DNA from: a virus
Taxonomy: Duplodnaviria > Heunggongvirae > Uroviricota > Caudoviricetes
Direction: 5' to 3' (one strand)
IMG/VR virus record: IMGVR_UViG_3300025011_000026
Length of the DNA stretch: 64,000 nucleotides
Shown here: positions 8,739 to 60,339 of the stretch, piece after piece
Position numbering within the stretch: position 1 is the first letter of the stretch
Layout of the letters: the number at the start of each line of letters is the position of its first letter
The notes under the pieces: generated by a model
Database searches by the model: none
What the model was told of the DNA's origin: nothing
Seen by the model: only the letters and a program-made list of their open reading frames with translations
Position numbers and translations under genes: made by a program

Positions 8739-8864
8739 TTGTTTGTATTATTTATTCTATCTATAGTTGCAATACTACTATTCTTAGCAATACCACTATA
8801 CGGTAAAATAGGCCAGAAGATTGAAAATGTAGAAAATAAAATTAAAGAGGAGATTAAAAAATAA
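8739..8864 (+). CDS. 41-aa single-TM peptide coupled to the SPFH gene
   Basis: TTG start after AAAGGATG. Translation MFVLFILSIVAILLFLAIPLYGKIGQKIENVENKIKEEIKK. Its stop overlaps the SPFH ATG (TAATG). Confidence 0.45.
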   Translation: MFVLFILSIVAILLFLAIPLYGKIGQKIENVENKIKEEIKK

Positions 8865-19332: not shown

Positions 19333-19346
19333 GAAGGAGGACTATA

Positions 19347-34868: not shown

Positions 34869-35019
34869 CAATTCAGTGGGGATAAATACATAAAGCAAAG
34901 AGGTGTTCATTCTGGAACAAAACAATCAAAATACATATAACCCAGATTCTCTTGATTCTCTAGATTCTTTAGGCATATTAGGGGGAGTCAGGGCAAAACC
35001 TGCAAGAAAGGATAAAATT

Positions 35020-35970
35020 ATGACCAAAGGTAAAATAGTGAATATTGGAGATAAATTTATAAGTAATAAAGGATATGAATACGAGGTTATAAATAAATTA
35101 AAAGGAGGAAAATATGAAGTTAGATTTAAAGATACAGGATATATAGCTAAGTCTGACAAAAAAGAAGTTTTAAATGGATGCATACGAGATTGGGAGGCTC
35201 CTTATGTCGTTGGTATAGGGATAGTTGGAAAAGAAATAGATCATCCCCAAAAGCATTATTTATATGATAGATGGAGAGATATGTTAAGACGGTGTTATGA
35301 TAATAGGTGTAATAGTTATTGTACATATGGAGCAGTAGGAGTAACAGTTGATGAAAAATGGTTTAGATTTATTAATTACGTAAATGATATCGAAACTAAG
35401 GAAAATTTTGAAAAATTAAAGATAAAAAATTGTGGTTGGGAAATAGATAAAGATTTAAAAGGGAATGGTACAAAAATATATTCTAATGCAACAACTTCAA
35501 TAATAAGAGAAGAAGAAAATATTAAAGAAAGAAATATCAGGCAAGATAATCCAGCAATAAAGCTTAAAATAAAAGTCATGCAATTTACAACAGAAGGCAA
35601 TTTTATTAAAACGCATGAGAGTATTACTGAAGCTATGAAGTTCATCGGTGTTATAAATGGTAGTGGCTCATGTATAATTGATTGTTGTAAAAGTAGAGCA
35701 AAGACAGCTTATGGGTTTGCATGGATGTATGAAAAAGATTTTATAGATTTTGAATCAGCTCGTATAAAAATAATACATAGATTAGAATATATTCCAGATA
35801 AGTATCGTAAAATAGTTTTGAAAATGGACAATGACTATAACATTATAGATGAATTTAAAGGGTTAAAAAGAGCATCTGAAAGTTTAGGTGCTACTGTTGG
35901 TGCAATAGCAAATGCCATAACAAGAGGGAACAAATGTAAAGGATTTATAGTGAGATACAAGGAGGAATAA
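35020..35970 (+). mobile_element. free-standing homing endonuclease-like gene with two NUMOD-type HTH modules
   Basis: YLYDRWRDMLRRCYD ... YGAVGVTVDEKW core, common in phage HNH/AP2-type endonucleases. Two C-terminal modules (ITEAMKFIG ... KTAYGFAWMY and LKRASESLG ... KCKGFIVRY). It has its own promoter and lies immediately 5' of the topoisomerase gene. Confidence 0.55.
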
Positions 35971-44956: not shown

Positions 44957-45020
44957 CTTTCTAATAAAATGGTAATAATAGTAAGATATATACACCTTGT
45001 ATTAGTTTCTTTTGTGGGTC

Positions 45021-45124
45021 TAAAGTTTAGACTGGTCGGGTATAAAACTTAGACGGGTCTAGAATTTAGACAGGTGTTTTCTGTGGATAAGCATCATATA
45101 ACCAGTATAGAATTTAGACAGGTT
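45021..45124. repeat. iterons (4 direct repeats, core TTAGACnGGT)
   Basis: AGTTTAGACTGGTC, AACTTAGACGGGTC, TAGAATTTAGACAGGTG and TAGAATTTAGACAGGTT, with cores starting at 45027, 45049, 45066 and 45114. A variant TTCGACAGGTTGA lies at 45944-45956. Confidence 0.65.
45081..45090 (-). promoter_or_regulatory. DnaA box (perfect TTATCCACAG)
   Basis: The plus strand reads CTGTGGATAA, between iterons 3 and 4. Confidence 0.6.
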
Positions 45125-46517: not shown

Positions 46518-47495
46518 TTACTCATCCATATCCCAATATTGTTTTCCTCCATCAAGATATGCTAAAGCATTAGTCAATTGAGGATGTTCACTTGATAACT
46601 TTGCTGTATTATCAAGTTTAATATTAAGATAAGGTAACAATACTTCGGCAGGGCCTCCCATGACACAAGTTTCTAATGCCTGTTGTAAATCAAATGTTTT
46701 TTCCAAAGAAGAAATTACATTATCGATATAATCTATAAGAATTTCATCTTTTGTCCTATCTAGATCATAACTTTGCTTTCGCAATGTAATCTCTGACCGT
46801 TTAAGATATTGCAATAATTCATGAGGTTTAAATCTAGTTCCATTCTTAGAATTAAAAGTTGTTGTAATTTGCTCTAGTATTTGATCAAAACCAAATTGTG
46901 TATAACTTACTTTAGAATCTAAAATTACTTCAGTATTTTCAGGATTAATATCGTCACCTTTACGCCATAATGAAGCATCTAAAGTTCCACCACCAAAATC
47001 TAAAACCAATAGGGGATATTCATATCTTCCTTTTTGAGAATCAGTTATTCCAGATTGAATGTAGCAAATAGAATCAGTTATTTCAATATTGATATTACCT
47101 CTATCATCACCGATATTAATAGTTTGTGCTTTCATAGTTTTTAATTTTTCAAGATATGCATTTGCATGTTGTTTGTAATAACCAGCCGGAGTACCAACTA
47201 CTAATTTAACTTTAATATCTTTACATTCTGGAAAACTTAAAGCAATAGAAGTTAATGTACATAAATCAAAATGTGTTGTGGTGTATTTATCTGGATTGAT
47301 ATAAATTTTTCCTTCTGGATCTCCTACAAGATGACTTAAGCCATCTTTTTTAACTAAGTAAGTATTACTTTTTAGTAGACCATCGCCCTCAGTATTAAAC
47401 TTAATTCTTGCTCTCAATACTATCCCTTTACTGGTTTTGTAGTACGAATTTCCTGCATCAAGACCTAAAATTTCTTCATCGTTCATCTCATTCAT
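46518..47495 (-). CDS. parM: ParM/StbA-type actin-like segregation ATPase
   Basis: Phosphate-1 LGLDAGNSYYKT and phosphate-2 LVLDFGGGTLDASL motifs. 325 aa. Confidence 0.8.
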   Translation of the reverse strand: MNEMNDEEILGLDAGNSYYKTSKGIVLRARIKFNTEGDGLLKSNTYLVKKDGLSHLVGDPEGKIYINPDKYTTTHFDLCTLTSIALSFPECKDIKVKLVVGTPAGYYKQHANAYLEKLKTMKAQTINIGDDRGNINIEITDSICYIQSGITDSQKGRYEYPLLVLDFGGGTLDASLWRKGDDINPENTEVILDSKVSYTQFGFDQILEQITTTFNSKNGTRFKPHELLQYLKRSEITLRKQSYDLDRTKDEILIDYIDNVISSLEKTFDLQQALETCVMGGPAEVLLPYLNIKLDNTAKLSSEHPQLTNALAYLDGGKQYWDMDE

Positions 47496-47566: not shown

Positions 47567-47659
47567 TTCAATTGTAGGTAAATATATCTACAGTTGTAAG
47601 TATATATACTTGTCTACAAATGTAAGTATGTTAATATAGACAAACTTATCTATATTAAC
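47567..47659. repeat. parC-like centromere repeats upstream of parM
   Basis: TTGTAGGTA (47573), TCTACAGTTGTAAGTAT (47587-47603) and TCTACAAATGTAAGTAT (47613-47629). Also an 11-bp inverted repeat GTTAATATAGA-N8-TCTATATTAAC (47630-47659). Confidence 0.55.
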
Positions 47660-48156
47660 ATATCTATTAATTAGAAAAGTCAGAAACTTCAGAGATGATT
47701 CTATCTTATATGATTATTTTTTAAAGATCAGGGCAAAGTAATGCTAGAGGACGAGGAAAGTTAACATATAGAAGGAGTAGTTTGATGATTAAGTCCTGAG
47801 AAATCAGAGCTTTTCTTTTTTTGTAAAGTATACTTGGGTATATTGGTAAACATTTAGTATACTCATATTTTATAATAATATTATTTATATATTAAACCAT
47901 CATACGTACTCCTATAAACACCTAATTATCCATTTTTAAACCATTAATATAAGCTATTTTCAGGATGTAAAATTTAAGAAAAGATGAATTATCATCAATC
48001 TAAGCCTTTGAAAATAATGTTTGGTGTGATTGTGTTAGTATGATTAGTTAAGGTTGTTTTAGGTTAAAGATTTCCCATTTATTACTATACATAACGTACA
48101 AACAATACTCAATAAGATTAAACATATCAACACCACACAAAGGAGGTCACAAAGCA

Positions 48157-48408
48157 TTGATAACTGACAAACTCAACAAATCAGAGATTAAAGTTCTTCA
48201 AGTTCTTCAGGAATCAAATATCACTAATGATATGAATGCTATGAAAATATCAACATTGTCAGAAAAAACTGGATTAAGTTATTTCATTGTTAGAAATATT
48301 ATCAAAGCATTTTATATTGCTAATATTTGTAAGAAAGGGAGGAGAGAGGGGAATGGAGAGACATATTATTTGAGCAAAGGAATTGATGATATTGAAACAA
48401 AAACCTGA
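48157..48408 (+). CDS. small winged-helix/HTH regulator, first gene of the T4SS-like operon
   Basis: SD AAAGGAGG then TTG. ISTLSEKTGLSYFIVRNIIKAF looks like a helix-turn-helix. Confidence 0.5.
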   Translation: MITDKLNKSEIKVLQVLQESNITNDMNAMKISTLSEKTGLSYFIVRNIIKAFYIANICKKGRREGNGETYYLSKGIDDIETKT

Positions 48409-48616
48409 ATGTAGACTTATTTGTAATCAAAATGACGATGACAATTTTAATTCTGTTTTTACTATTACTGATGAAGTTGCAAAATGTTTAATCAGAGCAA
48501 AAAGAGATTATTCTGCTAAAAGTTATATTGATCAAATTTGTGATATTGAATCTGTTGAAGAAGTTTTGAGATTGAGTTTAGGTTATGTTAATTTTATTTT
48601 TGTATATGAATTTTAA
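48386..48616 (+). CDS. hypothetical protein
   Basis: It overlaps the previous gene's end, with AAAGGA upstream. Confidence 0.45.
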   Translation: MILKQKPECRLICNQNDDDNFNSVFTITDEVAKCLIRAKRDYSAKSYIDQICDIESVEEVLRLSLGYVNFIFVYEF

Positions 48617-48630
48617 GGAGGAGGATGATT

Positions 48631-48894
48631 ATGAAGAAACCTGAAATTGGATTAGTTAAGAAGAAATTTTTTGATTATTTTAAATATCCAGAAGCAAAAA
48701 AGGTTGTTATTCCCACTCGATGTCCTAATTTAAAGTGTAGGAGCAAGAATATTATCGGCAGAGGATTAGTTATTGGAATGGCTTATGTAAGTCTTAAAAC
48801 TATGGATGTTGATGAATTAGGTGATGATTTTGAGATTTTGGATAAGGATGGGATAAAGTTTAGATGTTTTGATTGTGGTGAAGATTTTGAGTAA
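48631..48894 (+). CDS. hypothetical zinc-ribbon protein
   Basis: SD AAGGAGGAGG then ATG. CPNLKC ... CFDC. Confidence 0.55.
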   Translation: MKKPEIGLVKKKFFDYFKYPEAKKVVIPTRCPNLKCRSKNIIGRGLVIGMAYVSLKTMDVDELGDDFEILDKDGIKFRCFDCGEDFE

Positions 48895-48923
48895 ATTTTA
48901 ATGAATTTAAAGGAGTGGTAAAT

Positions 48924-49130
48924 ATGGCAAAAGTAAAAGTAATTAAATCAAAAAATCTAATCAAAATCGAAGAGAAAACTGATGCAGAATTGTATGAAGA
49001 CTTTACTAGAAGAATTAATGACTTATATACTGTAAGCAAATATTATGAGGAAAATAATCTTAAAATGCCTAAATGGATTGAGAATAAGATTATTAAGATG
49101 GGCGAGGTTATTGGGCAATTGGGATTGTGA
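48924..49130 (+). CDS. hypothetical protein
   Basis: SD AAAGGAGTGG then ATG 48924. Confidence 0.55.
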   Translation: MAKVKVIKSKNLIKIEEKTDAELYEDFTRRINDLYTVSKYYEENNLKMPKWIENKIIKMGEVIGQLGL

Positions 49131-49142
49131 GGAGTGGTCAAT

Positions 49143-49448
49143 ATGAATTACAGACTTCCAAACGAAAAGAAAATGAGAAATTATTTAGATCAATTTAGTT
49201 ACAGGAAAGTTACTGAAAAAGAATGGGAAGATTGTATTGAGAATTTTGTTGGTTTCGCAGAGTATATTGAAGAAGAAATGGAAGGCAAACAATTAATTCA
49301 AGAAGGAGCATCTACTGAAGTAGATATTGGAAAAGATAGTTATGAAGTATGGATTATTTTCAATTGGGTTTATGAACATGGAGTTAAAATTGTGCTGATT
49401 GATTTTGATTATAGTTATTCATTAGGAATTGTGAATGGAGAGTATTAA
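49143..49448 (+). CDS. hypothetical acidic protein
   Basis: SD GAGGAGTGG then ATG 49143. Confidence 0.55.
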   Translation: MNYRLPNEKKMRNYLDQFSYRKVTEKEWEDCIENFVGFAEYIEEEMEGKQLIQEGASTEVDIGKDSYEVWIIFNWVYEHGVKIVLIDFDYSYSLGIVNGEY

Positions 49449-49465
49449 TTAAAAGGAGGATTATT

Positions 49466-49657
49466 GTGAAAACATACAACATTCTAAAACCTAAAAATGA
49501 CTTTTATGAAAAGGTAAAAAATCGTCTTCATGGTAGAACTTGTACTTGTGATTTGTGTAAAACTAAAAGTCCTCTTTTAACCAATAAATCAATTGTCACA
49601 AAAGATACTGAATCCCAGTTCATTCATGTTTTAAATTATTGCCCTAATTGTCAGTAA
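49466..49657 (+). CDS. hypothetical zinc-ribbon protein
   Basis: SD AAAGGAGGA then GTG. CTCDLC ... CPNC. Confidence 0.5.
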   Translation: MKTYNILKPKNDFYEKVKNRLHGRTCTCDLCKTKSPLLTNKSIVTKDTESQFIHVLNYCPNCQ

Positions 49658-49784
49658 CGAATGCCAATTAGAATTGATTTTATTGAAAATACTCTTTCTT
49701 TTGCTTTTCCTTCTTGGGATGATAAAGATGGTATTTATCCTAAAAGAAGAGCAGATTAAATTAGTTTAAAAGGAGGAATTAATT

Positions 49785-50024
49785 ATGCTAATCAGTGGGT
49801 TTTCTATTAACAAAGGCAAAGAAAAATGTTTTTCATATATGGTTAAACCATCTACAATTGTTTCATTATTATTAATAGGAAGTTTTAGTGTAAATTTATG
49901 GCATATTCTTACATCTTCTGGATTAGAGTTATCAGGTGGCAAAGACATTTATTCATTTTTAGATAGTGTGAAACTTGACGGACAGAATATTAATTATGAA
50001 TATGTTTTTATGAAATTTAGGTAA
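49785..50024 (+). CDS. hypothetical membrane-associated protein
   Basis: SD AAAGGAGGAA then ATG. Central hydrophobic stretch TIVSLLLIGSFSVNLW. Confidence 0.5.
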   Translation: MLISGFSINKGKEKCFSYMVKPSTIVSLLLIGSFSVNLWHILTSSGLELSGGKDIYSFLDSVKLDGQNINYEYVFMKFR

Positions 50025-50060
50025 ATTGTGAAGGATGAGATTAAGGAGGGTTGATTAATT

Positions 50061-50273
50061 ATGAAAATTCGCGTATCAATACTGATTAATCAAGGTCGTA
50101 AAATTCATGACATTATCAATCATTTGGAATTTGAGAATACTGATGATTTTGTTGATTATAAACATGATTTTTATGACAATCTTTTTGACAGAGGATGGAG
50201 AAGAAATGGTATGAGTGCTAATCAATGTTATAAGGGGAATTTGACTTTGACTCCTTATTTTATTAGGGAATGA
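50061..50273 (+). CDS. hypothetical protein
   Basis: SD AAGGAGGG then ATG. Confidence 0.55.
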   Translation: MKIRVSILINQGRKIHDIINHLEFENTDDFVDYKHDFYDNLFDRGWRRNGMSANQCYKGNLTLTPYFIRE

Positions 50274-50279
50274 TTGATT

Positions 50280-50837
50280 ATGAAAAAACCAAACAAAAAA
50301 TTATTATTCTCTCTTGTATTATTAACATTATTATCAATACCACATCCTGTATCTGCCAAAGGAGAATTAACTACTAAACAAGCAAAAAGCATTTTAAACA
50401 TCATTATTGATAAAACTTATACAATTCTCACATATTCGTCTTCTCCTTGGATTTATCCTGTAGATGGAATTGTCACAAGTCCTTATGGGCCAAGAGAATC
50501 TTCGATAGATGGATTTCATCATGGGTTAGACATCTCTGCAGTAGAAAACACTCAAGTTCATTGTTCTAAATCAGGGATCGTAGTTAAAGCAGAATTTAAT
50601 GAAATGGTTGGAAATGTTGTGTGCATTAATCATTCAGATGGATTTCAAACTATGTATGCACACAACAATAAATTATTAGTCAAAGTTGGAGATAATGTAA
50701 ATCAAAATGATGTTATTGCATTGTCCGGTAATACTGGATTATTGTCAAGAGGAGCGCATGTACATTTTGAGATTCGTACCAATAATGGAACAAATTCATT
50801 AAATCCAATGAATTATTTACCTGCTAAACAAAAATAA
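50280..50837 (+). CDS. secreted M23 (LytM-type) peptidoglycan metallopeptidase
   Basis: Signal peptide MKKPNKKLLFSLVLLTLLSIPHPVSA. HxxxD motif GFHHGLDI and HxH motif AHVHFEI. Confidence 0.85.
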   Translation: MKKPNKKLLFSLVLLTLLSIPHPVSAKGELTTKQAKSILNIIIDKTYTILTYSSSPWIYPVDGIVTSPYGPRESSIDGFHHGLDISAVENTQVHCSKSGIVVKAEFNEMVGNVVCINHSDGFQTMYAHNNKLLVKVGDNVNQNDVIALSGNTGLLSRGAHVHFEIRTNNGTNSLNPMNYLPAKQK

Positions 50838-50855
50838 ACCCCTCAAAATGAGGGG
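50825..50855 (-). terminator. terminator for the minus-strand peptide gene
   Basis: 7-bp stem CCCCTCA/TGAGGGG, followed on the minus strand by TTTATTTTTGTTT. Confidence 0.5.
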
Positions 50856-50881
50856 ATGAAGTAGGATCATATTGATATTCA

Positions 50882-50983
50882 TTATTGAATTAATCTTCCT
50901 AATTGTTGTGCAATATCAACTAATTGATATGATCCATACCCTATTAATCCTACTCCAATTGCTGTTCCAAATATTAAAAACAT
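50882..50983 (-). CDS. 33-aa hydrophobic glycine-zipper peptide, antisense-oriented inside the T4SS operon
   Basis: Minus-strand SD AAAGGAG, 9 nt, then ATG. Translation MFLIFGTAIGVGLIGYGSYQLVDIAQQLGRLIQ. It has its own terminator. Confidence 0.4.
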   Translation of the reverse strand: MFLIFGTAIGVGLIGYGSYQLVDIAQQLGRLIQ

Positions 50984-51227
50984 AAATTTTCACTCCTTTA
51001 AATCATATTTCATTAACTGTATTATTACCAAACTATATGTCGAATATACATGAATTGATGTAAATTTTAAGACAAGAACCCTATATTAGCCACCTATACC
51101 AAGGATAATACACCCTAAATCCTACAGTCCTTTAATATCAATGGTCTTAGACTTGAAAATGTGGGGTCTTCTTATATAAGGAGGCAGATTTGCCGACTGT
51201 TTTAATTTTCAAAGGAGGTTGTTTACA

Positions 51228-51479
51228 TTGAATGAATTTTTAAGTTGGTCAACAAAGATTTGTTTGGCTATGACTGCTCTTGGTGGAGGATTGGCTATGC
51301 TCATGATCGTCTGGTCTGGGGTCATGGACATCATCGGAAATGGGCAATGGAAAGCTCAAGCAAAAGAACTGAAAGAAAGTGTAATTCGTGGATGTATCAC
51401 TATAGTCGTTGGGCCTTGGATCATAAAAATCTTGTGGAGTATATTAAAAGGAATCTTTCCAACACTTCCTACATTTTAA
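51228..51479 (+). CDS. VirB2/TrbC-like two-TM protein
   Basis: SD AAAGGAGG, then in-frame TTG 51228 (TTG 51219 abuts the SD). Two hydrophobic helices flank a polar loop, and it lies just before the VirB6-like gene. Confidence 0.35.
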   Translation: MNEFLSWSTKICLAMTALGGGLAMLMIVWSGVMDIIGNGQWKAQAKELKESVIRGCITIVVGPWIIKILWSILKGIFPTLPTF

Positions 51480-51509
51480 TTATTACAATTATAAAGGGGA
51501 TGATCATAA

Positions 51510-52544
51510 ATGCTTACAGTTGGAGAAGTAGGAGATGCAATTATTAACTTTTTTATTAAACCACCATCTCCTGAAAATGTTGATATAATACATGGGGCAT
51601 TATTCAATGCTCCTTCTCCAGAAACAGTAGAGAGTGTCAATAATGCTCTATTTAATGCACCTACACAACAAGATATTACAACAGTCAATGGAAGATTAGA
51701 GCATTTTATTACTGACTCATTAGTACAAAACTTTGCACAATTATTTCTTCATACACCAAATGTATTGGCAGAAAACCCAACCATATTATCTTTATATACT
51801 TTCTTTTTAAAAATAATTATTTCATTTTCATTTGCAGGAATAGTATATTTTGGAATTATGCAAATCATGAATAAGGGTAGTAAACACAATACAACGGAAT
51901 ACATTGTTAAGATAGCTCAATCAATGGTAATTATAAATATAGCAATTATAGCATTGCCATTGCTAATTGAAGCAACAAACAAATTTACTATAGCAATTCT
52001 TTCTCTTGGTGGATCTGAAGCACAAATGGTAAAAGCATTAAGTCCTCAATATGGATTAGGATTAATCATATTCACATTAATTTTTGCATTAATTCTAATT
52101 AATCTAATATGGTTCTATTTCATGAGAATGATTTCTATTATGTTTCTAATTGCAACTGCTCCTATATTCTTCTTTTTATGGTTATTCCCTAAATATCAAA
52201 ATATGAGACAGGTTTGGATTGATGAATTATTAGATAATCTAATTGCACCAATTATACATGCAATAATTATGGTTATTTGGTTAGGGTTTGAATCATCAGT
52301 ATCAAAATCAAATCATGGAGCACTTTATCATGTAATGCTTTCCATAGCTGCTGGTTCATTTATGTTAAAAGCACCTTCTTATGTCCAACAATGGATTTCT
52401 CATGGTCATCAATCACCAAATCCTATACAAATGTTTAAAGAGATAAAGTATGGGTTAAGTCCTAGAAAACTTATCGGTTATGGAGGATTTGGAAGAATGG
52501 GAGGAAGTATGTTTAGAGGAAGAGGGACTACAAAAAGGAGGTAA
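51510..52544 (+). CDS. VirB6/TrbL-like polytopic membrane protein
   Basis: At least 5 long hydrophobic segments. N-terminal three 16-aa repeats (PSPENVDIIHGALFNA / PSPETVESVNNALFNA / PTQQDITTVNGRLEHF). Gly/Arg-rich tail. Confidence 0.5.
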   Translation: MLTVGEVGDAIINFFIKPPSPENVDIIHGALFNAPSPETVESVNNALFNAPTQQDITTVNGRLEHFITDSLVQNFAQLFLHTPNVLAENPTILSLYTFFLKIIISFSFAGIVYFGIMQIMNKGSKHNTTEYIVKIAQSMVIINIAIIALPLLIEATNKFTIAILSLGGSEAQMVKALSPQYGLGLIIFTLIFALILINLIWFYFMRMISIMFLIATAPIFFFLWLFPKYQNMRQVWIDELLDNLIAPIIHAIIMVIWLGFESSVSKSNHGALYHVMLSIAAGSFMLKAPSYVQQWISHGHQSPNPIQMFKEIKYGLSPRKLIGYGGFGRMGGSMFRGRGTTKRR

Positions 52545-52548
52545 TTCA

Positions 52549-52896
52549 ATGTTTAATAATGAGATGTTTGAAACTAATCAAATCATTGAAATGAAAGACG
52601 AAATATTTTATGGACTTACAGGAAAACAAACTATTTATTTATTAGGTGGAATAGTGCTTAGTTTATCTGTATTTAATACTGCATTACCTATTATTGCAAA
52701 ACTATTCATTCTACCAAATATAGGTATTCCTACTGCAATTTTAACTAAAACTGATGTAGATCAAGGGATAGTTTCTTTCTTTAAATTCAAATGGAGAGGA
52801 GTGACAAAACAAAATGTTACAATACAATCTTTACCCAAAAGCAAATTATCTTTTAGTAACAAAAGAAGAGCAGACGCTACTTCGATCAAAGTTTAA
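52549..52896 (+). CDS. PrgI/VirB3-like small membrane protein
   Basis: SD AAGGAGG then ATG 52549. KDEIFYGLTGKQTIYLLGGIVLSLSVF matches the conserved (F)GLTxRQ-TM start of PrgI-family proteins. It lies directly upstream of the VirB4-like ATPase. Confidence 0.45.
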   Translation: MFNNEMFETNQIIEMKDEIFYGLTGKQTIYLLGGIVLSLSVFNTALPIIAKLFILPNIGIPTAILTKTDVDQGIVSFFKFKWRGVTKQNVTIQSLPKSKLSFSNKRRADATSIKV

Positions 52897-54322
52897 GTAT
52901 TTATTAAATTCTCTAAATGAACCATTTAAGATTATTTGTAAAACTGACTTAAATCAATTAAACAAAGAAATACAAGTTAATGAGTCAAGTTATTCTCTTA
53001 CTACTAATGCAAATATTTACGAAAATTTGCGTAATTCTGGAATAGACTATACTCAAAATCAATTACTAATTGCAAGTAATATTCAAATAAAGGAGTATAG
53101 AAAGTACATTGGTGTTACTGAAAACAATGTAAAATATTTTGCTAAATCAATCAAGGTTATCCAATTTCCACAAATGCTTTCTACTGGATTCATAAACAAC
53201 TTAATGATTTCTGACACTGAAATTGCTCTTACAATCTTTCCATTGCCACAAGAAGAGGCTGTAAAGGCAGTAAAAAAGAGAATTGATACTACTGAAGCAA
53301 ATGCTAATTGGAAGGCCGTAAAGAACCCTAATCAAGAGTTTTATGTAGAAGATGAAATTGTATCAAAACTTCAAAAGACTATGGTTGATCTTATGGGTAA
53401 TGAGGAAAAACTTTGTATGGTTGGATTATATATTTTAATTAAAGGACAAACACTTGAACAATTAGAAACAAAATCAAAACAAATATCAATGCTTTTAGAT
53501 GGAATGCAAATCAGATTCAAATTCGCTAATTGTGAACATTTTAATTGTTTCAAGAATTTTAGATCATATAAAGAAATTGACTATGTAAAGGAGTTAAAAG
53601 TGTTTTTAACAAGTGTGATTAGTAATTTTTATCCATTTGTTAGATATGTATCAGGTGATGGAATTATAATTGGATATGATTATCAAAATTATCAATTAAT
53701 TAAGATTAATTTTGCAGAGCAATTCAATCTGTCATGGTTCATTTTTGGAATTTCAGGAAGTGGAAAATCATTTGCTGTGAAATCAATTGTCAAGAAAATA
53801 TCTAGTCATAAGAAGATTTATATTCTTGATATTACTGGTGAATACGCCAAATTAAAATCAAAGAATATTATCATTATATCTAAGGATTTTGAGAAATTCC
53901 TACTGTACACCGATTTTAAAGATTGCATGATTGTAATTGATGAAGCATGGGATATTTTAAAAACTGATGCAGTTATTAAAAGAGTGGTAGCAATTGCCAA
54001 AGGATACAGAAAACGAGGAGTAGGTGTTTTAGTCTGCACACAAAACATTGCTGATACAAGTAAAGAGGATATTGAATTAATTATTAAAAACTGTGCTAAT
54101 ACTTTAATTCTTCACTTAACCTCCTTAGAACTTCAACATATTAGTGAATACATGAATATACCATCTCATATTGTCGATTATCTTTCTAGGATTGAAAAAG
54201 GACAAGGATGGATGACCATAGGAACAAAGAAATATGCTTTTAGCCCCATATTTAGTAATGAAGAATATTTATTATTTAATACCAATTATGAGGAAATGAA
54301 AGGGGTTGGTTATAATGGGTGA
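52814..54322 (+). CDS. VirB4-like T4SS ATPase (short form)
   Basis: Walker A FGISGSGKSF, Walker B MIVIDEAW. SD GGAGAGGAG 11 nt upstream. It overlaps the PrgI-like gene by 83 nt. Confidence 0.65.
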   Translation: MLQYNLYPKANYLLVTKEEQTLLRSKFKYLLNSLNEPFKIICKTDLNQLNKEIQVNESSYSLTTNANIYENLRNSGIDYTQNQLLIASNIQIKEYRKYIGVTENNVKYFAKSIKVIQFPQMLSTGFINNLMISDTEIALTIFPLPQEEAVKAVKKRIDTTEANANWKAVKNPNQEFYVEDEIVSKLQKTMVDLMGNEEKLCMVGLYILIKGQTLEQLETKSKQISMLLDGMQIRFKFANCEHFNCFKNFRSYKEIDYVKELKVFLTSVISNFYPFVRYVSGDGIIIGYDYQNYQLIKINFAEQFNLSWFIFGISGSGKSFAVKSIVKKISSHKKIYILDITGEYAKLKSKNIIIISKDFEKFLLYTDFKDCMIVIDEAWDILKTDAVIKRVVAIAKGYRKRGVGVLVCTQNIADTSKEDIELIIKNCANTLILHLTSLELQHISEYMNIPSHIVDYLSRIEKGQGWMTIGTKKYAFSPIFSNEEYLLFNTNYEEMKGVGYNG

Positions 54323-56021
54323 AAAGATAAGCAAGATTAAAGATATGGCAATTAAATCAGGTAAATATTCTGCTTTGTATACTGGACAATTTATTTTAGG
54401 TGGATTAGGCTATGCTGTTCAAATTGCTTCAAATGGAATATTAGGAATGAGCATTCCAGATTATAAACTGCCTAATTTGAAGTTTGGAGATGATAAAACT
54501 TCATTAGGAGATAGGGTAGTGTTAACTCCTAGTAAATTTCTTCTTAAAGGAAATGGCATAGTAATTGGCAAAGACTATAATACAAAAAATGTACTTACTT
54601 ATCCTGTAGATCATTTTGACGATCTTATGAAAAATTTTATTTATGTTGGGTCTCCTGGAAGTGGAAAATCAAATTTAGCAGAAAATATAGCAGTTCAAAT
54701 ATCTAAAATTAATAATTTACCTAATTTTAATACAGCAGGATTTTGTGTGATAGATGTAGCTGATGGAGCATTGATTGATAATATTTTAATGTCTATTCCT
54801 GAAAACAGATTGGAAGATGTAGTTTTATTAGATTTCTCTAATAAAGATTTTCTGCCAGGAATTAACCTTCTAGAATTCGATGAAAAAGTAGAGAAACAAT
54901 TCCCACACTTTATTCATGCTGAAATAATCTCATTCTTTAAAAAACGATTTGGTGAACAAATTGGTTATGCTAGTGAGGATCTTTTATCAAACTCGTTGAA
55001 CGCAATTCTGAAACAAACTGACTATCCTAAAACACTATTAGGAATTATCAAAATGCTAACTGAAGTAGAATATCGTGAACAAATAGTTGCATCTTTGAGA
55101 AAAAATAAAAGGAATGCTTCAGTAGTCAGATATTGGGATAGATTTGAAGCTCAATCTCCTTCTGTTAAAAGAGATATGGTTAAGCCTTTATTAAATAAAG
55201 TTGGAAATTTAACCAATAATGATTATTTAAAATCTATTATATGTCAAAACAAATCTACCATAGATTTTAGAAAAATTATGGATAGTGGCAAAATTCTTCT
55301 TATAAAAGCACCAAAGGTTGCTGTCGGAAAAGTTAATATAGAAATATTGATACCATTGATTCTTTCAAAGTTTTGGATCGCTGCTTTATCAAGATTTGAT
55401 ATTACTAATACTAATTTACGCCGTCCATTCTTTGCCTTTCTTGATGAACCTCAAATGTATCTATCAAATGAAGCAGGAATAGAAGAAATGTTGACGGAAA
55501 TGAGAAAGTATAGATTTGGACTTCATTTTTTCTTTCAATCCCCTGAACAAACGCAACTTCAATCAGTTATCAAAATGATGTTAGAAGTCAATCCTCAAAT
55601 TATATCATTTGCTATGGGTAGAGGTGGAGCACAAACATTATTTAGAGAATTTGAAACTGGTGATGAAGAAAAAGACATGTCAAATAGATATGCAATTCTT
55701 AATCTCCCAAAACATCACGCACTTTGTAGATTTTTATATAAAAGCGAAAAGAGTGTATCTATTATTAAATGCGATCCTCCAATTAAACCTTTGCGTAAAA
55801 AAGTACCTGATATTATTACTGAAAACAGTCAAATGTATTTACGTTCTGTTGATGAAATTATGGAAGAAATTCTTGAATCGGATTATATCCCTGAACCAGA
55901 TTTTAGTTTAGGGGAGGTGAGCAATAATGAACAGCAAAGATTTAATGTTGAAAAAATTGATTGTGGGCCAAAAATACGCCCATTTAACGGCGAGAGATTT
56001 AGAGATAATAAGAAGTATTAG
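54315..56021 (+). CDS. VirD4/TraG-like type IV coupling protein
   Basis: N-terminal hydrophobic segment. Walker A VGSPGSGKSN, Walker B FAFLDEPQ. ATG 54315 has better SD spacing than TTG 54306. Confidence 0.6.
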   Translation: MGEKISKIKDMAIKSGKYSALYTGQFILGGLGYAVQIASNGILGMSIPDYKLPNLKFGDDKTSLGDRVVLTPSKFLLKGNGIVIGKDYNTKNVLTYPVDHFDDLMKNFIYVGSPGSGKSNLAENIAVQISKINNLPNFNTAGFCVIDVADGALIDNILMSIPENRLEDVVLLDFSNKDFLPGINLLEFDEKVEKQFPHFIHAEIISFFKKRFGEQIGYASEDLLSNSLNAILKQTDYPKTLLGIIKMLTEVEYREQIVASLRKNKRNASVVRYWDRFEAQSPSVKRDMVKPLLNKVGNLTNNDYLKSIICQNKSTIDFRKIMDSGKILLIKAPKVAVGKVNIEILIPLILSKFWIAALSRFDITNTNLRRPFFAFLDEPQMYLSNEAGIEEMLTEMRKYRFGLHFFFQSPEQTQLQSVIKMMLEVNPQIISFAMGRGGAQTLFREFETGDEEKDMSNRYAILNLPKHHALCRFLYKSEKSVSIIKCDPPIKPLRKKVPDIITENSQMYLRSVDEIMEEILESDYIPEPDFSLGEVSNNEQQRFNVEKIDCGPKIRPFNGERFRDNKKY

Positions 56022-56691
56022 GGATTTTAAAATATTCTCCAGAACTCAAATTCAAATAATGTTCTTTCAATCCAAACAAAGTTTAACTATTTGCAATCGA
56101 AGGCTGGCTGAAATTGAAAGATTAGAATTTATAAAAAGGACACCAATAGCATTAAATGGGGAATCATTAGTCACTGCGGGAAAATTGCTTTGTCAAATTG
56201 GTGGGGTATATATATCAAAATTACCATCCGACTATACGCATCAACTATTAATAAATGAAATTTATGCTTTATTGTTCAGAGAGCAGAATTTAAATAGAAT
56301 TACTATCAAGCAATATAAACCAGAATTTGTTTACAGATACAAAGATAGAGAAAATGGCAAACAATATATTTTTAGGTCTGATATATTAGTTGTATTAACT
56401 AAGAATAATCAAGATACCACTTTGCTATTCGAAATTGATGCCGGAACAGAAAGCAAGAAACAATTAAGAGAAAAGATTGCTGTTTATGAAAAAGTGTCTC
56501 AAAAAGTGAAAGGGTTTCCTCGATTATTCTGGTTGACTAATACATTGGGATATCGAAAATTAACAAATTTAGATAAACAAATTAATATTGCTCAAGTAGA
56601 AGAATTGAGAAACGACTTTTATATTTTTACTCGTTACCCAGATATGAAGAAGATTAAATTAATTCCTGATATTGTGGTCTGGAAAATATAA
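55927..56691 (+). CDS. replication-relaxation (Replic_Relax) family protein, candidate relaxase
   Basis: LTARDLEIIRSIRDFKIFSRTQIQIMFFQSKQSLTICNRRLAEIERLEFIKR is the typical N-terminal wHTH pattern of the family. Strong SD GGGGAGGTG. It overlaps the coupling-protein gene by 95 nt. Confidence 0.6.
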   Translation: MNSKDLMLKKLIVGQKYAHLTARDLEIIRSIRDFKIFSRTQIQIMFFQSKQSLTICNRRLAEIERLEFIKRTPIALNGESLVTAGKLLCQIGGVYISKLPSDYTHQLLINEIYALLFREQNLNRITIKQYKPEFVYRYKDRENGKQYIFRSDILVVLTKNNQDTTLLFEIDAGTESKKQLREKIAVYEKVSQKVKGFPRLFWLTNTLGYRKLTNLDKQINIAQVEELRNDFYIFTRYPDMKKIKLIPDIVVWKI

Positions 56692-56712
56692 CTGGAACGG
56701 AGATGTTTAATT

Positions 56713-56880
56713 ATGGGATTTATAAGTAATTTAATTAGTGGTTTTGATAAGCCAGAAATTGATATTGATGAATTAGTAAATTTTATAATTGAAGAAACAC
56801 ATGTTAGTAGAGATATTATAGAATTGATTTTAGATACCGAGGAAATTTATTTAAGGATGAGAGGAATTATTATTGATTAA
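56713..56880 (+). CDS. 55-aa acidic protein, last gene of the operon
   Basis: SD GGAACGGAG then ATG. Translation MGFISNLISGFDKPEIDIDELVNFIIEETHVSRDIIELILDTEEIYLRMRGIIID. Confidence 0.45.
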   Translation: MGFISNLISGFDKPEIDIDELVNFIIEETHVSRDIIELILDTEEIYLRMRGIIID

Positions 56881-56886
56881 GATTTT

Positions 56887-56914
56887 AAGGATGATTTAAT
56901 TATCATCCTTTTTT
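56887..56914 (+). terminator. rho-independent terminator of the T4SS-like operon
   Basis: 9-bp stem AAGGATGAT/ATCATCCTT, then TTTTT. Confidence 0.7.
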
Positions 56915-56956
56915 AATATATTTTATAAAAAAATGATTGACAAGGTATTATTTGCC

Positions 56957-56984
56957 TTGTTTTTGTGTATATTTAATGTATAAT
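56957..56984 (+). promoter_or_regulatory. promoter of the DGQHR gene
   Basis: TTGTTT, 16 nt, TATAAT. A perfect TTGACA at 56937 is too far upstream to pair with this -10. Confidence 0.4.
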
Positions 56985-57006: not shown

Positions 57007-58557
57007 ATGAAAATTCTATTTTCTGATAAAGTTAAGGATATTAAATTGGAAGGAGATATACATGATATGAGTAGGAAAAGTAAGGAGAGATTTACACAGA
57101 TGGATATTGGTTTGGTTAATGCAGTAAAGGAAGAGGTGATGAACGGAATGAGTGATAATCACTCAGAAGAAGATCAAGAAATGATTCAGGAGATGGAAAG
57201 CATCACTCGTGAAGAAACTGCCGTTGGTTATGAGAGTGCAAATAGTTTTGAAGAGAATAGTAAAAGTGGAGATGTTATTAATTTGGGTGAGAAATCTATG
57301 CCAGCATTTGGTAGTTTAAGTGAAAAGACTAAAATAGAAGAGTCAAATGGGGATGATAAAGAGCAAATGTCAACTGAAGAATTTAATGAAACTAGAAATG
57401 AAGTTTTAGATAGTAAGAGTGAGTTCGAAAAGAAAAAGGAATTAAGAGAAGCAAATAAATTGAAACGAGATATGAGAAGTAAATTAAAGCAATTAGACAG
57501 TGAAAATGATGATAAATCATGGGAACTAAACAATGTCCAAATCGTCTTGCGTGATGGTAAGCCTTATAAATATTTGGTATCACTATCTTGTATGCAGTTG
57601 GCTGAGTGGTATATCTCTAAAAAGCTGATTTACGATTTTGGCGTACAAAGAGGCAGTAAAACCAATAAAAAAGGCGAGGAAGTACCTATACTTTTTCTAA
57701 AACATTGCAATGATATCAAAACTGCAATTTTAGATGGGTCAATTCACGGGGGAACATTGAGTCTAAATTTGCCTACTGACAATAATACACAACTTTTTTA
57801 TGACGAAGACAATATGACTTTAAGTTCTGACGTTCCCTTAACCATAAATGATGGTTTTCACCGCATATATGCAAGTTATTTGTGGTATAAGGAATTTGTT
57901 AAACCAAATAGTACATGTAAAAGTCCTGAAACGTTCTATTTTCCAGCCAATATTGAGCATATTAGTAGACAAGCGAGTTGTGATTTATTCAAAGAATATG
58001 CGGTTATGGGGAAATCTATTAGTAAGAACAGGATTAGTGTCCATAATGTATTTGATAAAAATTATGAAATCACACAGAGGGTTGCAAAATCATCTCAACT
58101 TCGTGGACGTATAGAAATGATTTCTAATTCAATTAAAAGAAGTAGTCCTTGCATTTTTACTTATGGTACAATATTAAATGGAGTATCTGAATTTAAGGTT
58201 ATTACTCAGGGGAAAGAAGAAGAAGTTGGTAATTTCATCATTGAGTTCTTAAATGAATTAATCGAATTATTTCCTAATCTAATGGGTCATGTTGATTCAG
58301 AAACAAGAGCGATAGAAAAACAAAAGAGTTTTGTACTCGAAAAAATGTTTCAAAATTCTTATTTTGTGTTAGCTAGTCAATTACAAGGTAAAGATGATTG
58401 GAAGAGTAGATTGGCTAAATTGACACAAAACAATTTCCTATCAAGAAGTAATCCAATGTGGGGCTTTTGCCTTAGAGAAGGCGAAAAAATAGTGAATTCT
58501 TCAAAGGTGCAAAAAACAATTACTGAGAAAATTATTGACTATGTGATGGCAAACTAA
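57007..58557 (+). CDS. ParB/Srx-fold DGQHR-type (DndB-like) protein with acidic disordered N-terminus
   Basis: FGVQRG ... LTINDGFHRIYASYLW resembles the QR ... DGQHR signature of DndB/DGQHR-domain proteins. The first ~170 aa are Glu/Asp/Ser/Lys-rich. Confidence 0.4.
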   Translation: MKILFSDKVKDIKLEGDIHDMSRKSKERFTQMDIGLVNAVKEEVMNGMSDNHSEEDQEMIQEMESITREETAVGYESANSFEENSKSGDVINLGEKSMPAFGSLSEKTKIEESNGDDKEQMSTEEFNETRNEVLDSKSEFEKKKELREANKLKRDMRSKLKQLDSENDDKSWELNNVQIVLRDGKPYKYLVSLSCMQLAEWYISKKLIYDFGVQRGSKTNKKGEEVPILFLKHCNDIKTAILDGSIHGGTLSLNLPTDNNTQLFYDEDNMTLSSDVPLTINDGFHRIYASYLWYKEFVKPNSTCKSPETFYFPANIEHISRQASCDLFKEYAVMGKSISKNRISVHNVFDKNYEITQRVAKSSQLRGRIEMISNSIKRSSPCIFTYGTILNGVSEFKVITQGKEEEVGNFIIEFLNELIELFPNLMGHVDSETRAIEKQKSFVLEKMFQNSYFVLASQLQGKDDWKSRLAKLTQNNFLSRSNPMWGFCLREGEKIVNSSKVQKTITEKIIDYVMAN

Positions 58558-58620: not shown

Positions 58621-60339
58621 CTACTTATAAATTCCCCAAACCAATTTTTCACCAGTTTCAGGATGTTTACCAGCCGATTTTTGATTGCCACTGCAACATC
58701 TAGATATGCCATTCGCAGACATATTATATTTTATTGAAGCATCCAACATACTCTCAAAAATTTCATTTGTTGTTATACAAATTACCTTTTTCTTACAAGA
58801 ATCATAATTTTCTGCTTTAGCATTTTTTAAACTATATTCTATTTCATCTTCTGTTTTCAAAAGATATTTTTCATAATACATCCAAACCAATGGCTCACCA
58901 GTTATCGACTTACCTGCTGATTTATGCTTACCTTTACAACATGCAGATATATTTGGTCTTATTGATTCTCTGCCATTGAATGAAGCTTCATATATAGAAT
59001 CAAATATTTCTCCAGTTGTAATGCAAATCACTTTCTCGCATATTTCTTCTTTTGGGTTATAAGAACACCATCCTAATTCTGTTCCTTTTTTAAGATAACT
59101 CCTTATCGCACTACTACTCAAATTTAAATTTTCCCCTATTTTAACTGTGCTTTTAATTCCTTCATTCCATAAACTACATGCTGTTTTAACTAAATTTCTA
59201 CACCCTGCTTCTTGCACTCTTAACCAATCTATATCTTCTTCAGTAAAATTTAATAACTCTGGCAATTTACTATTCATAATACTGTCCCTTATCCACCCTA
59301 TTTCAGACGTTCTGCAATCAATTATTAAATAATTTTTAATTTTATTACTCCTAGCCAACCATTCCTTATCAAAATCATTGATTTGTATATCATCTAATGA
59401 ATCCCACTTACTTTTCGTTTCTTCGTAGTGTTGAATTCCTTGACACTCTATCACACCATTTATTTTATTTATGTATATGTCATATCTATAATTTTCACAC
59501 CATTTAAAAGTAGTTTTTGATAATTGAATGATAAATGTTTCGTGTAATTGTTCTAAAACATTTATCATAACCTTTTCGGGGATGCTCACACCATCTCCAC
59601 ATCTGTTGCAACCGAAACCGTGATTTACTAAGTTAGAAATTTTAATCATTTTTTCATAACCACAATCAGGACATTTAGTTAATACATATTCACCTGACCC
59701 AAAAGAATATTTATGTGCATCATTTATATTCACAAAGAAATGTGTTAAATGAGGATGTGTGACAAAAATAGTATTGCACATATCACAATCTAGACTACCC
59801 TTTTGTCCTCCTGTAAAAGAACTTATATGTTTTTGTTCAGGTTTGTGTTCTGGATTATCTAAACAATTAAACCAATATCCTTTTTTATCTATGCCTTGTG
59901 AAGCAAAACTTACATCTTTGGGAGATAATTTATTACCATCTTTATCAACATTCAGTTCGCAATTCCAACGATTAATTATTATATCTGCTTCATTTTTATT
60001 TTTATTATCATAGCACCATTTGTAAAAAGATGTCCATTGTTTATCTCCTGCGTTTGCACATCTTAAACAATAATATTTTCCATCTTCTCTAACTTGTGAA
60101 GTATAGTCAGACCACCTTATATTTTCTAATAATTTTCCACATCCATCACATTCAATATTTACAAATACTCTGGCCTTATCTTGTAGATCCTCTACTTTAA
60201 CTTTTATTATTGCACCTCGTATATATTTTTCTTCGCCATTCTTATTTATGTATTTTGGTATCTCATATCCTTTTGCTTCATACCATTTAATATTTTTACT
60301 ACCTAACCCAACCTCAGCCTCTTTTGTTATCAATCCCAT
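58621..60339 (-). mobile_element. Zn-ribbon / PD-(D/E)XK-like / NUMOD-like endonuclease gene (free-standing homing-endonuclease-like)
   Basis: Several treble-clef-like Cys pairs (CDGC ... CLRC, CDMC, CPDC ... CNRC). Putative nuclease core YRYDIYINKINGVIECQGIQHY. Two C-terminal repeats VICITTxEIF(D/E)S ... CC(K/S)G ... KSAGK ... LVW. Confidence 0.45.

Follow-up and report, generated by a model that had tools for sequence, protein, structure and literature searches.

A cassette for minimal monoderm-type type IV secretion and DNA processing in a large groundwater phage

The gene cluster at positions 48,157-56,914 of a 64,000-nucleotide stretch of groundwater viral DNA, hereafter the window, is a phage-borne cassette for DNA processing and for type IV secretion of a minimal monoderm type (type IV secretion system, T4SS). 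The window covers bases 1-64000 of a contig of 92,482 bp from a groundwater metagenome (JGI 3300024999, Ga0209728_1000074), whose numbering it shares. In the cassette the three mandatory conjugation functions, a VirB4 ATPase, a VirD4/TrwB-type coupling protein (T4CP) and a MOB_C relaxase, are adjacent and co-oriented, with channel parts and a wall hydrolase alongside. We tentatively propose, with a little less than even confidence, that this cassette serves the contact-dependent, virion-independent, relaxase-initiated export of phage DNA. An earlier note, made from the letters of this DNA, had listed an M23 hydrolase, VirB2-, VirB6- and PrgI/VirB3-like membrane proteins, VirB4, a VirD4-like ATPase, a Replic_Relax protein and about seven tiny open reading frames (ORFs). 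All of these genes were found on the plus strand where they had been placed, most with strong Shine-Dalgarno sites (Table 1), and together they do form a minimal monoderm-type T4SS set, in which the membrane parts match their families below threshold.

The VirB4 protein carries GISGSGKS at amino acids (aa) 312-319 and VIDEAW at aa 374-379, and its residues 11-350 as well as its P-loop domain align to monoderm VirB4 models. Its NCBIfam matches are VirB4_plasma (3.8e-30) and conju_CD1110 (1.5e-28), both below the curated equivalog cut-offs, and CedB (2e-13); against the PDB, its sequence matches 4AG5, the crystal structure of a Thermoanaerobacter VirB4 (2.7e-6). The AlphaFold2 (AF2) model is of low confidence, with a predicted local distance difference test (pLDDT) score of 57.5, and only its fold-match ranking was used: each of the 14 top-ranked Foldseek structures is a TrwK/VirB4, with HerA, the STIV packaging ATPase, EccC, TcpA and FtsK ranked below them. 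The short length of the protein (502 aa), which had first been regarded as an oddity, is a trait of the groundwater phage family to which the window belongs, across which VirB4 measures 480-549 aa. Its best match in the phage collection is gp155 of Bacillus phage G, at 26-27% identity.

The coupling ATPase bears GSPGSGKS at aa 115-122 and LDEPQ at aa 379-383, with G115, G118, G120, K121, D380 and E381 invariant, and its AF2 model (pLDDT 77.6) has an all-alpha insert at ~aa 193-327, between the Walker motifs. The Pfam families that had been predicted for it, T4SS-DNA_transf and TraG-D_C, are found in its homologues only: the sequence alone has no Pfam match and no PDB match, but homologues at ~30% identity bear TrwB_AAD_bind, T4SS-DNA_transf and TraG-D_C, and a profile made from these homologues matches TrwB (5e-10) and DotL (9e-9) before any HerA. 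The top TM-score of the model, 0.68, is to TrwB, with HerA and Cag-beta at comparable Foldseek E-values, and the NCBIfam model CedD is matched at 1.4e-5. Relatives of this protein occur in 133 phage records, nearly all of Bacillus and allied genera. Matches include phage G gp156 (1e-31, 26% identity) and, by tblastn, CP-51 gp91 (4.7e-37), SPO1 gp27.4 (1.6e-30) and 0305phi8-36 orf201 (1.2e-20).

These results bear directly on an alternative raised in the earlier note, namely that both ATPases are HerA/FtsK-type enzymes that package the virion genome. The top Pfam match of VirB4 is indeed DUF87/HerA, HerA is close to TrwB by Foldseek E-value for the coupling protein, and the family phrog_2666, matched by VirB4 at 5.6e-30, is labelled 'terminase large subunit'. 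However, the alignment of the VirB4-specific N-terminal region, the fourteen leading VirB4 structures, the domains of the T4CP homologues and the TrwB-first, DotL-second profile ranking place neither ATPase in those families. Furthermore, the genes around these two encode VirB3-, VirB6- and VirB2-like proteins and a relaxase, and in a tailed phage it is the terminase that packages DNA. The packaging alternative is contradicted, and we regard it as extremely improbable. The 'terminase' label was rejected for the window protein, which is a VirB4-type ATPase; the label looks misannotated and could mislead automatic phage annotation.

The relaxase completes the set. It had been reported that no canonical MOB relaxase was visible, but the Replic_Relax family, which the protein matches above the Pfam cut-off, is the MOB_C relaxase superfamily, a canonical class that is recognised by CONJscan and is the typical partner of VirD4-type coupling proteins (PMC5357655). 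A canonical relaxase is therefore present. Residues H105, D152, E169, D171, K183 and Y187 are invariant among the window relaxase, phage G gp146, SPO1 gp27.3, CP-51 gp90 and 0305phi8-36 orf200, and tblastn of the window relaxase against the phage and plasmid collections gave no match at 1e-3.

The same core order, consisting of the pilin-like, VirB6-like, PrgI-like, VirB4, T4CP and relaxase genes, a small ORF and a DndB-like gene, is found in eight IMG/VR viral contigs (12.6 to 230 kb) and in a 237-kb JGI contig (L010). Among these relatives the five genes from pilin-like to T4CP are 72-94% identical and the relaxase 73-85%. Pairwise ratios of nonsynonymous to synonymous substitution rates are 0.07-0.21 for the pilin-like, VirB6-like, VirB4, T4CP and relaxase genes (0.10-0.21 for the pilin-like gene alone), and the core cassette genes are under purifying selection. 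The TubR-like and M23 genes are in most of the related contigs, the M23 gene being absent from L010 and from a far more distant 72-kb phage-like contig (L042); the small ORFs vary and are absent from the same two. L042 has the same six genes at 30-47% identity, and its cassette adjoins a different replisome (DnaC, DnaB, primase, sigma factor and Pol A). The operon found no megablast match in either the phage or the plasmid collection.

Cultured phages carry homologous genes. Phage G gp153 to gp156 are syntenic with the window genes from VirB6-like to T4CP; gp146, just upstream of them, is a Replic_Relax protein (4e-25), and gp155 matches P-loop_TraG/AAA_10 and bears the GenBank note 'type IV secretory pathway protein; VirB-like'. 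Two more IMG/VR contigs of 156 and 175 kb (L142 and L144) have a cassette of the G type. In SPO1, CP-51 and 0305phi8-36 the T4CP-like gene has as neighbours a Replic_Relax gene (gp27.3, gp90 and orf200, respectively) and an actin-like gene (gp27.9, gp96 and orf207), SPO1 gp27.9 matching ALP_N at 2.2e-27. This reduced Bacillus-phage form was named the 'DNA translocation operon' by Pathria et al. in 2012 (PMC3357382), who related its relaxase to CloDF13 MobC, took its ATPase as a coupling protein and orf203 as VirB6-like, and put forward particle-free 'propagation by translocation' in biofilms as a possible function. A broad jumbo-phage survey makes no mention of the cassette. It is thus a recurrent phage module, already described in 2012 and little noticed, and not a one-off fusion of plasmid and phage; in its full form it recurs in three phage lineages.

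The family matches of the three membrane proteins are weaker; that of the M23 hydrolase is unambiguous. Among 20 scanned proteins, a set that includes orthologues at 30-40% identity, T4SS_pilin was matched by three (not tied to names) and PrgI by four, which are orthologues, with a best value of 2.1e-5. Phage G gp153, a homologue of the VirB6-like protein (2e-10), matches TrbL_4 above threshold (1.8e-11). The PrgI-like protein has one to two hydrophobic segments, which fits the topology, and its gene likely starts at 52549 rather than 52480; the shorter form is supported by a 116-aa gene call in the 237-kb relative. Of the Pfam families that had been expected, Replic_Relax is matched above the cut-off and PrgI and TrbL below it. 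The M23 protein has a signal-peptide-like N-terminus, with a hydrophobic segment at aa 10-28 and a cleavage-like site between VSA and KG, and is a candidate functional analogue of VirB1/CwlT.

Table 1. Features of the cassette and its surroundings, in window coordinates
Feature	Position	Strand	Evidence and remarks
HNH/NUMOD endonucleases	19311-20318 and 34903-35970		
Actin-like (ParM/ALP) protein	46518..47495	minus	Divergent from operon; Pfam ALP_N 1.7e-10, MreB-like_C 5e-5; phrog_691 partition protein 7.6e-25
Iteron-like TGTA[AG]GTA repeats and 17-bp near-perfect palindrome	47573..47662		Upstream of parM; candidate centromere/operator
TubR-like winged-helix DNA-binding protein	48157..48408	+	PDB 6TEY TubR 3.3e-6, residues 6-79 of 83; Pfam only HTH_Mga 0.085
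Seven small ORFs, 63-104 aa	48383..50273	+	Good Shine-Dalgarno sites; variable between relatives
M23 peptidoglycan endopeptidase, secreted or anchored	50274..50837	+	Pfam Peptidase_M23 5.9e-28
GC-rich hairpin CCCCTCAAAATGAGGGG	50839..50855		T-tailed on minus strand
33-aa hydrophobic peptide gene MFLIFGTAIGVGLIGYGSYQLVDIAQQLGRLIQ	50882..50983	minus	Convergent with M23 gene; JGI gene call (L002, 8069-8170); kept in all relatives
Conserved non-coding block, ~230 bp	50990..51218		Upstream of core operon; candidate promoter/operator or oriT
VirB2-like protein, two transmembrane segments (aa 14-32, 58-76)	51219..51479	+	T4SS_pilin 7.5e-4 (below Pfam cut-off); phrog_3528 1.9e-5
VirB6/TrbL-like polytopic protein, five transmembrane peaks	51510..52544	+	TrbL 0.016 (sub-threshold); phrog_3750 1.2e-7
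PrgI/VirB3-like small membrane protein	52549..52896	+	PrgI 3.8e-4 (sub-threshold); hydrophobic hairpin from aa 31
VirB4-family ATPase, short phage type	52814..54322	+	Walker A 53747-53770; Walker B 53933-53950
VirD4/TrwB-type coupling ATPase, 571 aa	54306..56021	+	Walker A 54648-54671; Walker B 55440-55454; phrog_5156 4.2e-71
MOB_C-type (Replic_Relax) relaxase	55927..56691	+	Replic_Relax PF13814 1.6e-11, above Pfam cut-off
Acidic 55-aa protein	56713..56880	+	Last operon gene; 43-69% identity in relatives
Two terminator-like hairpins	56887..56961	+	Close operon
DndB/DGQHR (ParB-superfamily-like) protein	57007..58557	+	DndB 3.5e-16; DGQHR 4.5e-6
572-aa HNH/homing-endonuclease-like protein, treble-clef zinc fingers	58621-60339	minus	Between DndB-like gene and lysis cassette

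The carrier is a large siphovirus-like (long-tailed) phage genome, probably of a low-GC Bacillota host; the GC content of the window is ~28%. The cassette lies between replication genes and lysis/tail genes. The 44 kb upstream are a phage-type replication and nucleotide block with AAA_24, DnaB, primase, a PD-(D/E)XK nuclease, Pol III alpha, ribonucleotide reductase, GyrB- and GyrA-like topoisomerase subunits, ThyX, guanylate kinase, and HNH and NUMOD homing endonucleases, followed toward the cassette by a Phage_rep_O-like gene and the minus-strand actin-like ParM gene. On the 3' side, the DndB-like gene and an HNH endonuclease precede a lysis block on the minus strand, which includes Amidase_3 and a Peptidase_C1/Big_2/SPOR protein. 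The amidase, 867-aa and 1038-aa genes of the window recur in identical form on other contigs, which run on through genes of 426, 419, 386, 299, 349 and 88 aa to a 2702-aa protein with a PhageMin_Tail (tape-measure) domain, in the same genome and ~18 kb past the window end (contig L130, 1-3648). Homologues of the 1038-aa protein are named tail-fibre proteins in Paenibacillus, Clostridium kluyveri and other Bacillota. A close 112.8-kb relative, whose VirB4 is 91% identical, carries in this place two minor-tail proteins (1842 and 2219 aa) and a protein of 1884 aa that is related to YomI, the tape-measure protein of SPbeta; the window's tail-fibre proteins have no homology to those of this relative, and a tail-fibre query against IMG/VR gave no match. 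Pol III alpha is nearest to that of large Bacillota siphophages, including the plasmid-prophage c-st. A Patescibacteria host had been considered on account of the ATPase relatives, but was rejected since the relatives of the tail fibres and Pol III are Bacillota.

Several side observations concern this genome setting. Several other groundwater assemblies hold near-identical copies of the window sequence, and independent assemblies from different samples all start no more than ~300 bp from window position 1, which suggests a physical genome end, a terminal repeat or an assembly-breaking repeat. Among the small ORFs of the early region is a Band_7/SPFH-domain protein (8864-9775; phrog_200 'lipoprotein', 6.8e-63). 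At 45016-45075, where a 259-aa gene on the minus strand borders the Phage_rep_O-like gene, there are ~2-3 tandem copies of a 17-22-bp repeat CGGGTATAAAACTTAGA, which are candidates for the iterons of a replication origin. Other genes take the place of the 572-aa HNH protein in relatives. If, as in other siphophages, tail length follows that of the tape-measure protein, the tail would be unusually long. No tRNA genes were found, and an Rfam search of 44-61 kb gave two matches, both sub-threshold and at chance level.

Could the carrier instead be a conjugative (mega)plasmid with a prophage or phage-derived genes, like the 'Hodor' megaplasmids that were first catalogued as huge phages (PMC12934698), and the T4SS serve ordinary plasmid conjugation? 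Relatives reach 227-237 kb, the window has ParM, TubR-like and Rep_O-like genes as well as iteron-like repeats, and the virion genes read are the tape measure and the tail fibres, the sequence reached stopping short of the terminase, portal and capsid genes. However, the lysis genes are ~4 kb and the tape-measure gene ~20 kb from the cassette, with no integrase or module boundary found between cassette and lysis/tail genes; the upstream replisome, with its homing endonucleases and Bacillota-siphophage-like Pol III alpha, is of phage type; and homologous cassettes are in the complete genomes of the isolated, named phages G, SPO1, CP-51 and 0305phi8-36. An ordinary plasmid with a lysin cluster but devoid of virion genes, a possibility allowed for in the earlier note, is not what was found: the carrier is a phage because the tape-measure and tail-fibre genes adjoin the lysis genes on the same genome. 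Nor is the ParMRC 'plasmid core' an independent sign of a plasmid lifestyle, as had been supposed, given that actin-like genes are inside the operons of the lytic phages SPO1 (gp27.9) and 0305phi8-36 (orf207). We consider a megaplasmid improbable. The suggestion of a 'conjugative phage-plasmid' stands as to its T4SS and its phage identity, while the plasmid state and conjugation itself are still hypothetical.

We hypothesize that the cassette works as follows. The MOB_C relaxase would nick phage DNA at a putative origin of transfer (oriT), one candidate for which is the conserved block of 230 bp that precedes the core genes, and the relaxase-DNA complex would be passed to the TrwB/VirD4-type coupling ATPase. 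VirB4 and the VirB3-, VirB6- and VirB2-like membrane proteins would form and power a membrane channel, the secreted M23 endopeptidase would open the peptidoglycan locally, and the TubR-like protein together with the neighbouring actin-like filament may deliver DNA to the channel. In effect, phage DNA would leave an infected or lysogenic cell and enter a touching neighbour without a virion. Such a conjugation-like route would complement infection by particles, and could help in biofilms or with cells that lack the receptor. Contact-dependent export is favoured because relaxase and coupling protein, VirB4 translocon and wall enzyme are found together, and export rather than import because the co-occurrence of a relaxase with a T4CP is a hallmark of nicked-strand export.

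A number of observations weigh against this proposal. The assignments of the pilin-, VirB6- and PrgI-like proteins draw on sub-threshold profile matches and transitive homology, which is weaker evidence. Pfam and family searches, small ORFs included, revealed no VirB8/PrgL/TcpC-like scaffold and no adhesin, in line with what had been reported at first. The annotation of the relaxase family phrog_9381 (6.7e-15) as 'replication initiation by nicking' would fit a role in replication. No oriT was recognised by an inverted-repeat search, an alignment of relatives or folding of the conserved upstream block, whose single-strand fold is no better than that of shuffled sequences (z = 0.19) and which has no notable hairpin and no Rfam match. 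The coupling ATPase is without a clear N-terminal transmembrane domain, having a weak helix at aa 29-47 (best 19-mer hydropathy 1.28) inside a low-confidence predicted helix at aa 2-44; many of its relatives likewise lack transmembrane helices (Pathria et al., PMC3357382). Then there is the matter of phage lifestyle, since the cassette occurs in lytic phages, whose donor cells die. CP-51 we take to be lytic, and plasmid-style conjugation from a surviving donor makes little sense in SPO1, 0305phi8-36 and CP-51, because they are lytic. 0305phi8-36 and SPO1 have been described as lytic, and deletion of the 0305phi8-36 operon caused no growth defect (PMC3357382).

The opposite direction of transport has also to be weighed. 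A DNA uptake or competence-like machine, comparable to the crenarchaeal Ced system, ComB or the relaxase-poor T4SS of Patescibacteria, might import nucleotides, host DNA or co-infecting genomes. Here belong the matches of VirB4 to CedB and of the T4CP to CedD, the minimal gene set without an adhesin, and the closest cellular relatives of the ATPases, which are those of Patescibacteria, whose T4SS is thought to be non-conjugative (PMC12102498). However, the conserved relaxase beside a coupling protein is the signature of nicked-strand export, uptake systems having neither, and the similarity to Ced and Patescibacteria is no stronger than that to the conjugative VirB4 families, so that we give little credence to uptake. 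Still less probable, in our view, is a device for protein secretion or host manipulation that delivers effectors into neighbours or the envelope, in which the relaxase would be no more than a translocated pilot protein. T4SSs have repeatedly been exapted for protein delivery and the seven variable small ORFs upstream could be cargo, but family searches with these ORFs and with the 55-aa ORF gave no meaningful match and no effector-like domains, the small ORFs are missing from L010 and L042 though the core persists there, and known monoderm T4SSs are overwhelmingly DNA-transfer systems.

The region upstream of the core genes bears on a further alternative. The 'HTH protein' (helix-turn-helix) of the earlier note is indeed a DNA-binding winged-helix protein, more exactly a TubR-like one, and is 30-85% identical in relatives. 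In type III partition systems, TubR is the protein that binds the centromere. No TubZ was found near the TubR-like gene, which stands back to back with ParM across a 660-bp spacer carrying the repeats and the palindrome, an arrangement that may combine type II with type III partition parts. Within the parM-upstream region is an inverted repeat (I2; 47627-47662, 94% complementary), and the gene downstream of ParM has no meaningful family match. The window's own ParM and Rep_O sequences are not conserved in relatives, and its actin-like protein has no detectable sequence homology to SPO1 gp27.9 or 0305phi8-36 orf207. In the 237-kb relative an actin-like gene is directly 5' of the cassette on the same strand; directly 5' of both lies a large serine recombinase (L010, 4066-5658), which could be a phage integrase/resolvase or mark the cassette as a mobile island, and which is absent from the window.

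The single operon bounded by terminators that was first described holds at its downstream end, where two hairpins close it; no terminator was found upstream of the operon. Moreover, the stretch 48157-56914 is probably two transcription units, split by a conserved 380-bp region with the minus-strand 33-aa gene. This region (50838-51218, from the M23 to the pilin-like gene) is among the best-conserved stretches of the locus, occurs in all relatives, and may act as a promoter/operator or as an oriT, or else be a small locus of the toxin type. The hairpin at its start is T-tailed on the minus strand and therefore terminates the 33-aa gene; it may also stop the M23 transcript. In the alignment of relatives, TGTCGAA is invariant at 51038-51044, inside the invariant TGTCGAATATACATGAA. 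This heptamer is the consensus of the Spo0A box. It occurs five times in the window, 3.06 being expected, and is thus not enriched.

These features are compatible with the handling of DNA inside the host cell, in which the relaxase would be a nicking initiator, and the T4CP-like pump, the actin filament and the TubR-like adaptor would move or segregate genomes, be it across the division or sporulation septum into the forespore ('virospore' entrapment) or in the partition of a plasmid-prophage. Actin-like genes lie within the SPO1 and 0305phi8-36 operons and beside the cassette in the window and L010, a TubR-like centromere-binding protein heads the operon, the PHROGs label of the relaxase family speaks of replication, the reduced SPO1-type operon is without VirB4, and the sequence 5' of the core genes holds an invariant, perfect Spo0A-box heptamer; SPO1 gene 27.9 has also been linked to possible forespore entrapment (PMC12991052). 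On the other hand, VirB4, the VirB3-, VirB6- and VirB2-like proteins and a secreted hydrolase are envelope-spanning parts that would be superfluous within one cytoplasm, the number of Spo0A boxes across the window does not depart from chance, and neither sporulation genes nor the identity of the host has been established. We consider such an intracellular role rather unlikely, forespore entrapment being an attractive version of it.

The DndB-like gene always comes after the cassette in the groundwater family, and is absent from the 72-kb contig L042. Its protein is 25-39% identical between relatives, as against 72-94% for the pilin-like to T4CP proteins and 73-85% for Replic_Relax. Such fast divergence is typical of proteins of defence, counter-defence or DNA recognition.

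If contact-dependent export is what the cassette does, large tailed phages of this family, as well as phage G and its relatives, may encode a self-sufficient conjugation apparatus, their genomes spreading both as virions and by contact-dependent transfer. We regard this wider claim as doubtful but possible. Phages and conjugative elements are usually treated as mutually exclusive routes of transfer, and a 2025 review stated that no phage-plasmid or prophage is known to be conjugative; were the claim true, these would be the first 'conjugative phages', with a possible evolutionary link to the enigmatic T4SS of Patescibacteria. A complete set of relaxase, coupling protein, VirB4 and channel genes is fixed in phage genomes of at least three lineages, one of which is the cultivable phage G. 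Movement of phage DNA between cells by this cassette would change views of host range, spread in biofilms, resistance by receptor loss and the sorting of viromes into 'plasmid' and 'virus', whereas movement within the cell, for example into spores, would explain the persistence of lytic phages in dormant hosts. The cultivable relatives G, SPO1, CP-51 and 0305phi8-36 make the question directly testable.

Among cellular systems, the chromosomal T4SS of Patescibacteria (the Candidate Phyla Radiation) has a similarly minimal repertoire of VirB4, PrgI/VirB3, VirB6 and VirB2-like proteins, but its clusters usually lack a relaxase and have the T4CP elsewhere (PMC12102498), whereas both are adjacent in the window. 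The nearest cellular homologues of both ATPases are from Patescibacteria (22-28% identity for VirB4, ~24-34% for T4CP), in searches driven by a small set of sequence patterns. The small size of this set, and identities no higher than those to phage G, suggest that the likeness reflects shared membership of a broad monoderm-type clade and is not evidence on the host, which the tail-fibre and polymerase relatives place in Bacillota. The Patescibacteria T4CP homologue is usually fused to, or directly after, a DUF8128 protein and lies among SecA, SecDF, ClpB and RecJ genes, not beside virB4 (for example L044, 8358-12370); the long N-terminal extensions of the G, SPO1 and CP-51 T4CPs have no DUF8128 match.

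The Clostridium phage-plasmid c-st, which has TubZRC and a Pol III alpha replisome, resembles the window element in its Pol III alpha (39.5% identity), a TubR-like protein, partition-type genes and iteron-like repeats. It differs in that the window has no TubZ and that a plasmid state of the window element is hypothetical; no repressor or lysogeny module was identified in the window, and c-st is not among the organisms with a T4CP match in the phage collection.

Gram-positive conjugation systems (MPF_FATA/FA: Prg/Pcf of pCF10, ICEBs1, Tn916/CD1110 and Tcp of pCW3) share with the cassette a monoderm-type VirB4, as seen in the matches to Mycoplasma integrative and conjugative element VirB4 (3.8e-30) and CD1110 (1.5e-28), PrgI/VirB3-like and VirB6-like proteins, a VirD4-type T4CP, a canonical relaxase class and a dedicated wall hydrolase. 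In contrast to them, the window is without a VirB8/PrgL/TcpC-like protein or surface adhesin, its VirB4 is ~250-300 aa shorter, and the carrier is a phage. It also has a VirB2-like protein, which Gram-positive systems normally lack (PMC12102498).

The closest parallels are in phages. Phage G (gp146 and gp153-gp156) and the contigs L142 and L144 have the same order of VirB6-like, small membrane protein, VirB4-like and T4CP-like genes, and in L142 an M23 domain lies beside the cassette. The differences of phage G are an identity of 21-27%, a relaxase ~3 kb upstream on the opposite strand, a T4CP with an N-terminal extension of ~370 aa, and no recognised pilin-, TubR- or DndB-like genes. In the Bacillus-phage 'DNA translocation operon' (0305phi8-36 orf200-207, SPO1 27.3-27.9 and CP-51 gp90-96), as in the window, a Replic_Relax/MOB_C relaxase with conserved catalytic-type residues adjoins a T4CP-like ATPase in the genome of a large tailed Bacillota phage, together with small membrane proteins and an actin-like protein. 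That operon has no detectable VirB4 and one long ATPase of ~800-910 aa, the window T4CP being short at 571 aa; neither an M23 hydrolase nor recognised VirB2- or PrgI-like genes have been noted in that operon; and the actin-like gene, inside the operon in SPO1 and 0305phi8-36, is adjacent but divergent in the window. To this form the window adds separate VirB4, VirB3-, VirB6- and VirB2-like genes, a wall hydrolase, a TubR-like protein and a DndB-like companion, and what is new here is this version of the cassette, the fullest yet seen, in an uncultured phage family with genomes of up to ~237 kb.

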